Positions 1,826 through 16,106 of a DNA stretch of 32,000 bases are shown piece after piece; the first letter of the stretch is position 1, and every line of letters starts with the position of its first letter. The position numbers and the translations under genes were made by a program. This stretch comes from an uncultured bacterium (GTDB lineage Bacteria; Patescibacteriota; Gracilibacteria; UBA1369; PNNO01). The notes below the pieces were generated by a model. That model did no database searches. It was given only the letters and a program-made list of their open reading frames with translations, and was not told where the DNA came from. The stretch covers positions 750,001 through 782,000 of the forward strand of contig OY969931.1 in NCBI GenBank assembly GCA_963704705.1, given 5' to 3'.

Positions 1826-4138
1826 CTACGCCCCAAGCTGATCAAGATTCTGCTGAAATCTGTCACCAAATTTTTGAGTTGTTCTCATTACTGACTTGAA
1901 GTCGCTATAACCTCTGCGTTTTTGCCAGTCAGTAGGATGTAAGTGATTATCAAAATAATCTCTCATTTCAGATTCTGTTTCAGGTAATGGGATTCCATCT
2001 CTTAAATTTCGGATAAATGCTGCTGCTCCACCCGGTCCGTTTCTCCAGTATAAATATACCGCTCTCATCCATGATCTGCGCATTCTGCCGTCTGTTGTTC
2101 TTAATTTATCAAAAATATTATCAACAGATTCAAGTTTGCTTAAAATTCTTGAATATCTAAACATGAAAAGATTATGAGCTGCGCATCTTTCAAAAGGTGT
2201 TGCGAATTCAGGCCTTGGTGCGCTGAAATCTAATTTCATTAACATTTCAGGGTCGATTCCGTATTTTTTCAACTGACTTCTTAAAATTTTACCTCTTTTG
2301 GAATTTTCAGAATACTTTTTAAAATCCCGCCAAACCGAATTAAGTATTTGATATTCTCCTGCTGCTGTAGAAAGTGCCACTTCCCTTGTTCCGCCTTTTT
2401 TTCTGCTATTAAAATCATAAGGATTGTAATTGGATTCAACTCTTAAAACTGCGTCGTTAAGCGCAATAAAATAATTCCAGTCTTTTTTCTTAAGGCCAAC
2501 CATTTGTGCAGAATATTTAAGTGCGTCCATTAATTTATATTTTTGCTGCATTATATCCATTCTTTGCTTTATATCCATTTTTCCAATTGCATATGCTTCC
2601 CTTCTGGCTGAGGTATACCAATCATTTTCTTCTTTTGTTAATCTGTAACCCATTCTAATTGCAAAAGGCGTACTGCCCCGAGCTACCATGTCTCTTTTTG
2701 AAGCATCCGGTAAATTAGCAGCGGACTCCGGAGGTTTTGATTTTGGTTTTGGTTTTGGTTCAGTATCAGGTAAAGAATCGTCAACTTGAGTTGGCTTGTG
2801 AATCGCTGTAACAGGCATATTTTTAAAATTGTATACTCTTATTTTTTGTCCTCCTCCGGTGTTACTGAACCAGCTTGCAATTCGTGCTTTTCGTGCAGGT
2901 TTATCTACCCAGCCTAAAAATATTCCGCTGTGGTTACCAGCATAATCATATTTATTTCTGTTGTTAATCCATACCCAATCCCCTACTTCTAAATTATCAA
3001 GCATTTTATCTGATGCATGTTTGCCTTCAATTCTGCAATCATATCTACTAGGGTCAGTTTCTGGCTTCCAGCCTTTTGATTTATCACCATTAACAAATGC
3101 ATAATCTAAATTCTGATATATGGTCTGTTTTCTTTTAACCCCGGCAATTGCATATACTCTGTCCACCCAGTCACCACAATGTCTCGCACCAATATTGTTT
3201 TCTGGTTTTGTAAGATATTCAACAACTTTTTTAATTCTTTCCTGCGCGGAAAGTCCTTCTAAACTTCCGATTTTTTCTCTAATTGCAATGATTTGTTCAC
3301 GTGAAACAGATGGTCTTTTTGTTACGAATGACCAATTCTTGTTTTGCTTATCAAGATAATTGCTGTCTTCCTTTGAATATTTTGATTTATCATATTTTTC
3401 ATATGATTTTTCATTTATTTCTTTATATTTATTGCCTTCTTTTTCCCTGAACTGCTCTTTAAATTCGGGATTTGAATTTTCAAATTCAAAAACATCGCCA
3501 GTATGAATGGCCATGTAACCCTGATTATCATAAAATCCGCGTTTTGCTTTATTTTGACCTTTCAGTCCTATTCGTCTGGCACTCATTCTCTTGAGATTTT
3601 CTCTGCCACCCTCATACTTTGTTACTTTTCGCATAGTAATAGAAAGCATATCAGCAAGCCCCCATTTATCTTCAGCTTCACTATTACCTAAAAAATTCAT
3701 TTTGTATTTTGTTTTTTCTTTAAATTTTGAATAAATTGCATCGCTTGACCAATTTTTAATATCCAATTTATCCGCATCATTCATATTCGTTGTAAAAGCA
3801 GCTAAAGTTAAGCCCGGATATTTATCCTCAAGCTTTTCAATCAAACTAATTGGTGCTGATTTAATTCTTTCTCTTAATTTTTTTACTGAATCGATTCCTT
3901 CGGAAAACATTTCCACATTCATATTCTGACGTAAAGCACCAACCAAATCTTTAGCTTTGTCTTTAAGTTTATCTTTTGCATCCTGATATTTTTTATCAAG
4001 TTTGGCTTTTTTATCTTCTTTTGTTTCAGGTGCAACTTGAGGTGCATTCGCGCCGGATTCAGGTGTTCGTGTAACATCGGGTTTTTTGGAACCCTTCACA
4101 TCATAAACTAACTTGTTTTCAGCAAAATATATTTTCAT
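1826..4138 (-). CDS. Large two-domain putative peptidoglycan hydrolase (NlpC/P60-like cysteine peptidase plus SLT-like lytic transglycosylase). No signal peptide.
   Basis: 770 aa. The central region has HCGDWV ... GDWVWI ... GNHSGIFLGW, matching the Cys/His spacing of NlpC/P60 or CHAP folds. A PKPKPKSKPP linker follows. The C-terminal region has ESNYNP ... AGEYQIL ... YWRNGPGG, matching SLT motifs ES / GLMQ / AYNxGxG. The N-terminal ~320 aa are K/E-rich with no recognisable domain, no TM segment and no signal peptide. Confidence 0.6.
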   Translation of the reverse strand: MKIYFAENKLVYDVKGSKKPDVTRTPESGANAPQVAPETKEDKKAKLDKKYQDAKDKLKDKAKDLVGALRQNMNVEMFSEGIDSVKKLRERIKSAPISLIEKLEDKYPGLTLAAFTTNMNDADKLDIKNWSSDAIYSKFKEKTKYKMNFLGNSEAEDKWGLADMLSITMRKVTKYEGGRENLKRMSARRIGLKGQNKAKRGFYDNQGYMAIHTGDVFEFENSNPEFKEQFREKEGNKYKEINEKSYEKYDKSKYSKEDSNYLDKQNKNWSFVTKRPSVSREQIIAIREKIGSLEGLSAQERIKKVVEYLTKPENNIGARHCGDWVDRVYAIAGVKRKQTIYQNLDYAFVNGDKSKGWKPETDPSRYDCRIEGKHASDKMLDNLEVGDWVWINNRNKYDYAGNHSGIFLGWVDKPARKARIASWFSNTGGGQKIRVYNFKNMPVTAIHKPTQVDDSLPDTEPKPKPKSKPPESAANLPDASKRDMVARGSTPFAIRMGYRLTKEENDWYTSARREAYAIGKMDIKQRMDIMQQKYKLMDALKYSAQMVGLKKKDWNYFIALNDAVLRVESNYNPYDFNSRKKGGTREVALSTAAGEYQILNSVWRDFKKYSENSKRGKILRSQLKKYGIDPEMLMKLDFSAPRPEFATPFERCAAHNLFMFRYSRILSKLESVDNIFDKLRTTDGRMRRSWMRAVYLYWRNGPGGAAAFIRNLRDGIPLPETESEMRDYFDNHLHPTDWQKRRGYSDFKSVMRTTQKFGDRFQQNLDQLGA

Positions 4139-4195
4139 TTTTGTTTTTTTATCCTAATATTATAGCATTTTTCAGCCAAAAAATCTAATTTCAAC

Positions 4196-4449: not shown

Positions 4450-5073
4450 ATGGAAATGATTAAGAAACTATTGTATTTTGCTCTTCCAATCGCAGTATTG
4501 GCTGTAATAGGAGTGCAAACAGCAAGCGCAGATTACTATGATTGTGAAGGTAATGTACGTCCTGGAACACCAGGTCCGTCACAATGTCATTATTTGACTC
4601 AGCCGCCTTCGGCTTTACCGGATCAGCCTGAACAAACAACTCCATCAATTATACCAAATTGTTCAAATGGAAATTGCGGTACATTTCAATATACTCCTCA
4701 ATTACAACCATTTACGATCGTTGTTCCCCAAGATGAACCAGAAGAAATAGTACCTGATGAAGAAGATGCTACTGAAATCAGAAACAGCAGAAAATATTGT
4801 GTTAGAGATTACTGTTATATCATCTATGAAATTTGCTACAGCAATGGTTACTGTGAAAAAAAGGCAGAAAGAATTGGTCGTGATCAAATGGATAATAATG
4901 ATCAAGGAAACAATTATTACTGGGGAAACCAATTAAATAATTACGTATACAATTACTTCTACAACAACTACTACTCAGGAAGATATGATGATTATTGTAA
5001 CACTGGAAGCAGAAATTGTGTTTACAGAGGCTCTCACTACGGAAGATATACCAACCGATACTGGGACTTCTAA
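4450..5073 (+). CDS. Secreted hypothetical protein with short disulfide-loop motifs and an Asn/Tyr-rich C-terminus
   Basis: Signal peptide MEMIKKLLYFALPIAVLAVIGVQTASA|DYY. The mature part has 10 Cys, mostly as close pairs (CSNGNC, CVRDYC, CYSNGYC, CNTGSRNC). The C-terminus is NNYYWGNQLNNYVYNYFYNNYYSGRY. Confidence 0.75.
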   Translation: MEMIKKLLYFALPIAVLAVIGVQTASADYYDCEGNVRPGTPGPSQCHYLTQPPSALPDQPEQTTPSIIPNCSNGNCGTFQYTPQLQPFTIVVPQDEPEEIVPDEEDATEIRNSRKYCVRDYCYIIYEICYSNGYCEKKAERIGRDQMDNNDQGNNYYWGNQLNNYVYNYFYNNYYSGRYDDYCNTGSRNCVYRGSHYGRYTNRYWDF

Positions 5074-15641: not shown

Positions 15642-16106
15642 ATGCAAGCGATGGTACCTCAAAATGTACAAGTTGCAGATAAAATAGTTGGTCCGCTCAC
15701 ACTTCGTCACATGATAATAATAGGAGCTGGTGGCGGGCTTGCGTATCTTGTTTATGTAATACTTGCAAGAAGTTATTATTGGGAAGTTTGGCTGCCACCT
15801 GTTGCTATTATTTCGACAATAACATTGCTAGTAGCTTTTTTAAAAATTTATAATCTGCCTTTTGGAAAATTTTTTATATTATTAATGGAATTTATTTTTG
15901 TTCCTAGAAAAAGAGCATGGGTAAAAAACAGCGGAGAAATTTTCGGTAAAAAACACATTATTGCAAAAGACACACATGAAAAAGAAAAAAAGATAATAAA
16001 AGGTGAAAAAGCTCAACAGACTTTAAAGAAAATTGACGATATCAGCCAAATCCTTGATACATACGGCAAGGAAGCACACAAATCAGCACTTAATAAACAA
16101 AAATAA
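15642..16106 (+). CDS. PrgI-family-like small membrane protein (type IV secretion associated in Gram-positive conjugation systems)
   Basis: The N-terminus VPQNVQVADKIVGPLTLRHMIIIGAGGGLAYLVYVIL matches the characteristic PrgI-family opening (vPq...eDKI.GpLTlRq followed by two TM helices). The C-terminal tail is K/E-rich. Confidence 0.6.
   Translation: MQAMVPQNVQVADKIVGPLTLRHMIIIGAGGGLAYLVYVILARSYYWEVWLPPVAIISTITLLVAFLKIYNLPFGKFFILLMEFIFVPRKRAWVKNSGEIFGKKHIIAKDTHEKEKKIIKGEKAQQTLKKIDDISQILDTYGKEAHKSALNKQK

Follow-up and report, generated by a model that had tools for sequence, protein, structure and literature searches.

The window analysed here is a 32,000-nucleotide stretch of the contig OY969931.1 (positions 750,001 to 782,000) from an uncultured, ultra-small bacterium of the Patescibacteriota (Peribacteria type), and its element of interest is a gene on the minus strand at 1826-4138, which encodes a protein of 770 amino acids (aa), P0001. 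An earlier note on this DNA had described the gene as a single reading frame that combines two kinds of cell wall hydrolase. The gene is indeed one intact open reading frame (ORF) with an ATG start and a stop codon, and upstream of the ATG the frame stays open for 5 codons only. All seven motifs quoted in the note (7/7) are where it had placed them: HCGDWV at residue 320, GDWVWI at 386, GNHSGIFLGW at 401, PKPKPKSKPP at 461 (window 2729-2758), ESNYNP at 568, AGEYQIL at 593 and YWRNGPGG at 697. The conservation of the catalytic motifs among homologues exceeds chance. The Pro/Lys linker is partly coded by hexanucleotides, as had been noticed (GGTTTT/GATTTT hexamers at about 2735-2760). Homologues of P0001 number 18 by a word-index search and 152 by an exhaustive search of representatives, and local domain mapping divides the protein into three independent modules, which we call N (~60-268), M (275-455) and C (470-770). 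The anatomy of the gene is as follows, each line ending with what the assignment rests on.

1826..4138, minus strand: whole gene P0001 (ORF; full-length homologues at 33-78% identity)
4103..4138, minus strand: N-terminal tag, residues 1-12, MKIYFAENKLVY (conservation; sharing with 4 unrelated ORFs)
4022..4102, minus strand: K/P/E-rich disordered spacer, residues 13-39 (low predicted local distance difference test score, pLDDT; poorly conserved in the alignment)
3923..4021, minus strand: long K/E-rich helix, residues 40-72 (DSSP on the AlphaFold model)
3335..3916, minus strand: N-domain, residues about 75-268, alpha/beta, of unknown fold (pLDDT >90)
2774..3316, minus strand: M-domain, residues 275-455, divergent NlpC/P60/CHAP-like, with a probable papain fold (profile alignment, model, conservation)
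3176-3178 and 2930-2932, minus strand: predicted catalytic codons of the M-domain, Cys321 and His403, respectively
2702..2773, minus strand: flexible Pro/Lys linker, residues 456-479 (partly coded by GGTTTT-type hexamers)
1829..2701, minus strand: C-domain, residues 480-770, expanded all-alpha SLT-like (hhalign, model, Foldseek, conservation)
2435-2437, minus strand: predicted catalytic codon of the C-domain, Glu568

The presence of a peptidase and a glycosidase in one leaderless protein, proposed in the earlier note, is backed for both modules by the profiles of relatives, but not by matches of P0001's own sequence to hidden Markov models (HMMs). In the case of the M-domain, the relatives P0140 and P0143, both matched directly by P0001 (phmmer, whole-library E ~3-6e-6), pass the Pfam NLPC_P60 gathering score of 23 bits with 24.7 and 29.8 bits, whereas P0001 itself stays under it and has no Pfam match at E <=10. 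A profile of 35 close M-domains aligns with the corresponding regions of P0140 and P0143 at an hhalign probability of 99.7% (E 9e-27); in it, HCGDWV is matched by ACWDYV, and the Cys and His regions are both included. Among 82 stand-alone M-domain proteins, 3 match Pfam NLPC_P60 and 2 match Amidase_6. The two putative catalytic residues are kept almost without exception, C321 in 91 of 93 homologous M-domains and H403 in all 93. In an AlphaFold model of residues 273-770 (pLDDT 90.4; positions within the model are numbered from its own start) Cys321 starts helix 49-60 and strand 130-140 begins beside His403, while the linker (model residues 187-207, pLDDT <50) is disordered and also varies among orthologues. 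Compared with NlpC/P60 (PF00877) and CHAP domains (the CHAPK domain of LysK and the hub CHAP domain of phi812), the M-domain is alike in having a Cys that starts a helix, a His strand ~80 residues further on and a pattern of the type GD-hydrophobic ... H-x-G-I-F/Y. It differs in having 25-30 extra residues between the helix of the Cys and the strand of the His, and HCGDW in place of DCSG.

The glycan-cleaving nature of the C-domain is indicated by several lines of evidence. Its motifs correspond to those of SLT domains (motif I, E568-S569; motif II, G594..Q597; motif III, Y695..N700-G701), with the Y-x-x-x-R-N-G motif lying ~125 residues after Glu568, and they are nearly invariant: E568, S569, G594, Q597, Y695, R699 and N700 are each present in 22 of 23 C-domains and G701 in all 23. 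A profile of 22 C-domains aligns over 52 columns with those regions of N-domain relatives that are positive for SLT or SLT_4 (hhalign 94.8%, E 5e-8), taking in SLT motifs I (E-S) and II (S-x-A-x-G-x-x-Q). In the AlphaFold model Glu568 sits at the end of helix 279-297, which is followed by a small beta-hairpin. In the per-domain check by HMM and fold comparison that the earlier note had proposed, Pfam was silent, and Foldseek pointed, weakly (E 0.07-0.35), to MltE/MltF and phage CHAP domains. The best PDB match of the C-domain is MltE (probability 0.97, weak E 0.07-0.2, target-normalised template modelling (TM) score 0.45-0.50), followed by MltF, and the CHAP matches (9eum, 4csh and 4olk) have probabilities of 0.63-0.82 at weak E of 0.13-0.35 and TM scores of 0.32-0.37. 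Further support comes from domain replacement. In P0011, P0012 and P0167 a Pfam Glucosaminidase domain stands in place of the C-domain, and P0167 occupies the same chromosomal slot between the Cys-rich gene and purA described below, so that a recognised glycan-cleaving enzyme replaces the C-domain at the same position. Compared with E. coli MltE and other family-1 lytic transglycosylases (PF01464), the C-domain shares the Glu-Ser, which its model places at a helix end, and the G-x-x-Q and Y-x-x-N-G type motifs. However, it is larger (~290 aa against ~120-190 aa), with ~95 residues inserted between motifs II and III and extra helices at both domain ends, and unlike MltE, P0001 is not a lipoprotein. 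Neither P0001 nor nine of its C-domain relatives match Pfam SLT or other families.

The N-terminal third had been taken for a ~320-aa K/E-rich region. A K/E-rich helix and spacer are indeed present, but the region is not uniformly of low complexity and resolves into four parts. Behind the 12-residue tag come a disordered spacer and then a long helix, and the fourth part is an alpha/beta domain modelled with confidence. For residues 1-272 the AlphaFold model reaches an overall pLDDT of 80.9, rising above 90 for about 80-270 and falling below 50 for residues 1-36. Within the N-domain E104, G109, F149 and G160 are invariant in all 59 homologues. The domain has no match in Pfam or by profile search of the PDB, nor by Foldseek in the PDB (best E 1.3) or BFVD (best E 1.6). 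Its distribution is narrow, with 4 of 401 sampled Patescibacteria genomes positive, all in the window's order, and any part of P0001 is matched in 53 of 201 genomes of this order; relatives are labelled Peregrinibacteria, Peribacteria or Patescibacteria. The enzymes fused to the N-domain are diverse and include SLT, GDSL, M23, glucosaminidase, muramidase, VanY and beta-lactamase/S11-like modules. The lack of a signal peptide or transmembrane segment claimed earlier is borne out by hydropathy analysis, used here rather than a dedicated signal-peptide predictor: the maximal Kyte-Doolittle average over 19 residues is 0.39, as against N-terminal values of 2.33 for an RlpA-SLH protein and 2.07 for the Cys-rich neighbour, both secreted proteins of the same genome. 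The same holds across the family. Not one of 59 N-domain and 26 C-domain proteins has a hydrophobic 19-mer (>=1.6), whereas 12 of 89 M-only proteins do, several of them at residue 1.

The modules are combined in many ways, and the following architectures were observed.

N-M-C: only in the window's genus
N-C: P0005
Another N-terminal region followed by C: seen among relatives
N-M, 400-500 aa: the commonest form
N-M-glucosaminidase: P0011 and P0012
M-glucosaminidase: P0167
N followed by SLT, GDSL, M23, muramidase or DSP-phosphatase modules: relatives
N-VanY: a paralogue in the window's own genome
N with a beta-lactamase/S11-like module: relatives

The N-VanY protein, a presumptive VanY/M15 D-Ala-D-Ala carboxypeptidase fusion, is the sole N-domain paralogue of P0001 in its own genome (L012:10677-12194, plus strand; 1,060,677-1,062,194), and it too is leaderless, but it has no tag. 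Such swapping takes place at a fixed locus. The purA-convergent hydrolase gene is also found for P0003, P0009, P0014 (36% identity) and P0167, and the triplet of Cys-rich gene, hydrolase and purA is present in 17 of 18 loci, some of them redundant, whatever the architecture of the hydrolase. In several genomes (L062, L068, L069, L070 and L072) two N-domain genes with different enzyme modules are adjacent, for example N+M beside N+SLT or beside N with a beta-lactamase-like module. Some N-domain proteins of 845-1250 aa (P0057, P0063, P0095 and P0105) join SLT-like and GDSL/SGNH modules; by analogy with what is known of Ape-type esterases, this pairing would suit an O-acetyl-peptidoglycan esterase that acts alongside a lytic transglycosylase. 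In another genome (L010:306-19747) an N+M gene has an M23 gene on one side and an SLT gene on the other, and around it are ORFs of 1392, 1355, 825 and 1191 aa without Pfam domains, three of whose proteins start with MSPE or MSPQPE. We considered a docking domain common to the hydrolases and these giant proteins, but the giant ORFs have no N-domain.

Our preferred interpretation, which we hold to be more likely than not, is that P0001 is a leaderless two-module peptidoglycan hydrolase whose tag and N-domain guide its export by a non-Sec route and whose gene is a chromosomal one linked to purA. According to this scheme, P0001 would be a soluble modular enzyme with two catalytic modules separated by a flexible Pro/Lys linker. 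The papain-fold module (Cys321/His403) would cut the stem peptide or the amide bond to it, and the enlarged SLT-like module would use Glu568 to cleave the MurNAc-GlcNAc glycan, most likely by lytic transglycosylase action. The tag and the N-domain would direct the passage of the enzyme from the cytoplasm to the wall along a path that does not depend on a Sec signal peptide. The parts of this scheme are not equally firm. The data show the anatomy of the protein, the homology of its two enzyme modules, the conservation of the catalytic residues, the swapping of domains at one locus and the lack of leaders throughout the family. The enzyme identity of both modules is well supported, since the evidence converges even if each piece is modest, whereas we infer the chemistry and the role of the tag and N-domain. 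Export by a non-Sec route is plausible, given the kind of enzymes involved and this lack of leaders. Several observations weigh against the scheme. P0001 has no match in Pfam and NCBIfam even at E = 10 and none in the PDB by sequence; profile searches of the PDB with alignments of the P0001 family likewise give no match, and Foldseek against the PDB with the model of residues 273-770 gives nothing at E <=1e-3, the best values being 0.07-0.35. The M-domain has no invariant H/D/E/N/Q at the canonical +10 to +17 positions for the third residue of the catalytic triad, for which S422 and N426 are candidates. Lytic transglycosylases and hydrolytic muramidases are not separable by sequence. Neither the second N-domain protein of the genome nor the remoter N+M proteins carry the tag, which means that tag and N-domain cannot both be required for one route.

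The tag deserves separate consideration. Its core is a 9-mer of the form hydrophobic-F-[SFA]-E-x-[KR]-[LF]-[VIL]-[FYC], unstructured on its own (AlphaFold pLDDT about 34), and it is kept in 13 homologues of P0001 even where the next domain differs. Four unrelated ORFs of the same genome start with the same 9-mer:

L080:5715-7787, plus strand: 691 aa
L081:3631-5904, plus strand: 758 aa
L082:5934-6350, plus strand: 139 aa
L082:6364-7134, plus strand: 257 aa

In all four the tag is followed by a hydrophilic spacer, and none has a Pfam domain or a leader. The five tag proteins, none of which has a transmembrane segment, resemble each other only over the first 45-100 residues. A position-specific scoring matrix trained solely on P0001 orthologues was scanned over the whole proteome (about 423,000 positions), and the five best sites are at residues 4-10 of exactly these five proteins. 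Their scores are 28.9, 27.9, 24.2, 21.6 and 14.6 bits, whereas the maximum in shuffled proteomes is 15.7 bits on average and 21.8 bits at most; the two weakest sites, being within the shuffled range, rest mainly on position and orthologue conservation. The 758-aa protein is matched in all 13 genomes of the family, and its relatives have the tag at the very start in all but one of the 12 loci that contain the N-terminus. At the DNA level, a fixed-spacing tag pattern gives 35 matches, spread over 27 of the order's 201 genomes, whereas a reversed control gives 7, and ~27 of the 35 are true ORF starts of non-hydrophobic proteins from several families, with a spacer rich in Pro, Glu, Lys and Gly after the tag. 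In L080 and L083-L093 the gene of the 691-aa family immediately precedes a triple T4SS_pilin gene at 9 of 11 loci, spanning five genera, and in the window's own genome (L080:5715-14355; 535.7-544.4 kb) the 691-aa gene overlaps the start of the 371-aa triple T4SS_pilin gene, which is followed by a second pilin gene and then by a gene for a 1483-aa pilin-PKD protein. Conservation of the tag on otherwise unrelated proteins suggests a role in sorting. A further proposal, which is possible though we would sooner bet against it, is that M-x(1-5)-hydrophobic-F-x-E-x-[KR]-[LF]-[VI]-[FY] together with the Pro/Glu/Lys/Gly-rich spacer constitutes an undescribed sorting signal of Peribacteria type by which each genome would export several unrelated leaderless proteins, including P0001 and a conserved partner of the T4SS pilins; the route could be a relaxase-less machine resembling a type IV secretion system (T4SS), with the hydrolase as one cargo, and the N-domain would be a second, order-specific module for targeting to the wall.

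Other destinations and routes were considered and rejected. Some tag proteins have GG after the tag, reminiscent of a double-glycine leader for a C39 ABC exporter, but no C39 domain is encoded in the genome, and the spacing is wrong for such a leader. There is one SecA only, which leaves no SecA2, and a single FtsK of 791 aa with no EssC, as a type VII secretion system (T7SS) would need. No shell genes for a microcompartment or encapsulin, and no sheath or gp25 of a contractile injection system, were found in the genome.

The earlier note had also suggested a functional tie between the hydrolase and a PrgI/VirB4-like operon about 11.5 kb away. Gene neighbourhoods lend this no support. The PrgI/TrsD pair starts at window position 15642, about ten unrelated housekeeping genes lie between it and P0001, and the sole VirB4-like ATPase of the genome is at about 855 kb, ~100 kb from P0001; a second AAA_10 match at 1,039 kb proved to be FtsK. 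More broadly, in 20 N-domain hydrolase loci from 20 genomes, VirB4, PrgI or TrsD is never found within 10 kb (0/20) and a pilin gene only once (1/20). Even so, P0001 might be a VirB1-like wall-opening enzyme or a substrate of a Patescibacteria-type T4SS, docked by its tag and acting at the contact site, possibly on a host wall. Missing linkage is not decisive here, since VirB1 homologues of Patescibacteria are mostly away from virB4 and other glycosidases may take their role, and peptidase and lysozyme homologues beside virB4 are essential in Southlakia (PMC12102498). The combination of glycosidase and peptidase, the presence in the genome of a VirB4-like ATPase, a PrgI/TrsD operon and pilin arrays, and the absence of the other non-Sec routes tested (C39 PCAT, SecA2, EssC, contractile sheath and gp25) are also in line with such a role. 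A T4SS-like machine is the sole candidate export route with even circumstantial support, and the only link found between it and P0001 is an indirect one, the tag common to the 691-aa family upstream of pilin genes. Yet the tag is missing from some orthologues of that family, P0001 has no membrane anchor, its gene is in a housekeeping block beside purA, and the N-domain was found in one order only among the sampled genomes, whereas T4SSs are widespread across Patescibacteria (PMC12102498). We regard a T4SS enzyme or substrate as rather unlikely.

Less probable still is that P0001 is never exported and processes imported or recycled muropeptides, or a substrate unrelated to the wall, in the cytoplasm. 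Cytoplasmic recycling peptidases such as LdcA-type carboxypeptidases are known, P0001 has no export signal of a known type, and N-domain genes are repeatedly found among purine and pyrimidine synthesis genes. However, SLT-type enzymes, M23 peptidases, muramidases and glucosaminidases, all of which are fused to N-domains, act on the polymeric wall outside the membrane; two enzymes joined by a flexible linker fit an attack on intact sacculi, and the sorting role suggested by the tag is at odds with a cytoplasmic enzyme. A domesticated lysin of a phage or mobile element, either an endolysin or a virion-associated enzyme, is very improbable. Leaderless modular lysins with CHAP and glycosidase domains are typical of phages, and the best CHAP fold matches are phage proteins, but tblastn against 50,697 phage and 72,556 plasmid records finds nothing, the N-domain lacks a BFVD match, and the purA synteny is stable with no phage genes nearby. 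Altogether, the gene appears to be a vertically inherited chromosomal one outside any T4SS, phage or plasmid module. If P0001 is an exported wall hydrolase as we prefer to think, its target is slightly more likely to be the cell's own wall than that of a neighbouring or host cell. The former is favoured by the stable synteny on the chromosome and by N-domain partners of the DD-carboxypeptidase type, the latter by rapid domain swapping and toxin-like partner modules.

In Gram-positive conjugative T4SSs the dedicated wall hydrolases, such as CwlT of ICEBs1, TraG of pIP501 and PrgK of pCF10, pair a glycosidase with a peptidase. P0001 is alike in uniting a glycan-cleaving module and a peptidase with a probable papain fold in one polypeptide, and its host is likewise a wall-bearing monoderm-type cell with a FATA-type T4SS. 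CwlT, TraG and PrgK are anchored to the membrane or carry a signal at the N-terminus, and their genes lie within the transfer operon, whereas P0001 has neither anchor nor signal and adjoins purA; in those proteins the glycosidase comes first, whereas in P0001 the order is reversed, and P0001 begins with the tag and an orphan N-domain. A different parallel is offered by the Xanthomonas X-Tfe (XVIPCD) effectors, the Tae/Tge effectors of the type VI secretion system (T6SS) and the LXG proteins of the T7SS, which, as generally described, are also leaderless and combine a conserved non-catalytic module with swappable wall enzymes; similarly, the adjacent small Sec-exported protein could be an immunity factor. 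However, the P0001 genome has no T6SS or T7SS markers, nothing in the N-domain resembles XVIPCD or LXG, the neighbour gene is transcribed divergently instead of sharing an operon with the hydrolase gene, and P0001 is a stable core gene. The P0001 group is a well-defined new subfamily of bifunctional wall hydrolases. Its catalytic pairing is of an already known kind, whereas the reversed domain order, the lack of an anchor, the orphan N-domain and the shared tag are not described in the literature searched.

These results bear on questions that are largely open in the ultra-small Patescibacteria, namely how the wall is remodelled, how a partner's wall is opened and what a T4SS without conjugation carries. 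P0001 offers two enzyme domains that current libraries miss, with the putative catalytic residues named. The N-domain is a confidently modelled carrier whose fold is unknown and which is joined to nine or more kinds of wall-active module, in every case without a leader, and the tag recurs on unrelated leaderless proteins, of which one is tied to pilin operons. Were the tag an export signal, the cargo set of an unknown route could be read from genome sequence. If it is not, there is still a new subfamily of bifunctional wall hydrolases, and a clear example of how domains are exchanged at one fixed position of the chromosome.

As for the surroundings of the gene, P0001 is convergent with purA, and a tRNA gene sits between it and the next upstream gene. 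With this tRNA on the opposite strand upstream and purA convergent downstream, the transcription unit looks monocistronic. A consensus scan for a promoter yielded weak sites only, so the -10-like element listed below is no more than a candidate. The genes flanking P0001 are of the housekeeping kind (purA, those for a peptidyl-prolyl isomerase, serine hydroxymethyltransferase and LepA, and others). Two features stand next to the gene:

4159..4167, minus strand: extended -10-like TGCTATAAT, candidate promoter element, 21 nucleotides 5' of the P0001 ATG
4450..5073, plus strand: Cys-rich neighbour, 207 aa, predicted to be Sec-exported, divergent from P0001 (hydropathy, synteny)

The Cys-rich protein (~200 aa in general) accompanies the hydrolase gene whatever the architecture of the hydrolase (window, L001-L008, L011 and L031-L036). 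It could be a partner or an inhibitor of the hydrolase, or its presence could be mere synteny.

The N-domain hydrolase genes adjoin nucleotide synthesis genes in four different synteny groups, in which the neighbours are purA; purQ and purL with recA; pyrD; and pyrE and pyrF. The corresponding positions are:

window:517-1824: purA
L064:11037-15357: purQ and purL, with recA
L071:7993-9108: pyrD
L068:8667-11649: pyrE and pyrF

Peribacteria are unusually rich in nucleotide synthesis genes (PMC4736985). The genome that carries the window is a single contig of 1,374,545 bp with 35.5% G+C and a completeness of 99.4%, and its 16S and 23S rRNA genes are unlinked. Between the two, at window:22100-27216 on the plus strand, lie an HlyD-like gene, a gene for an ABC ATPase and two genes for MacB/FtsX-type permeases.

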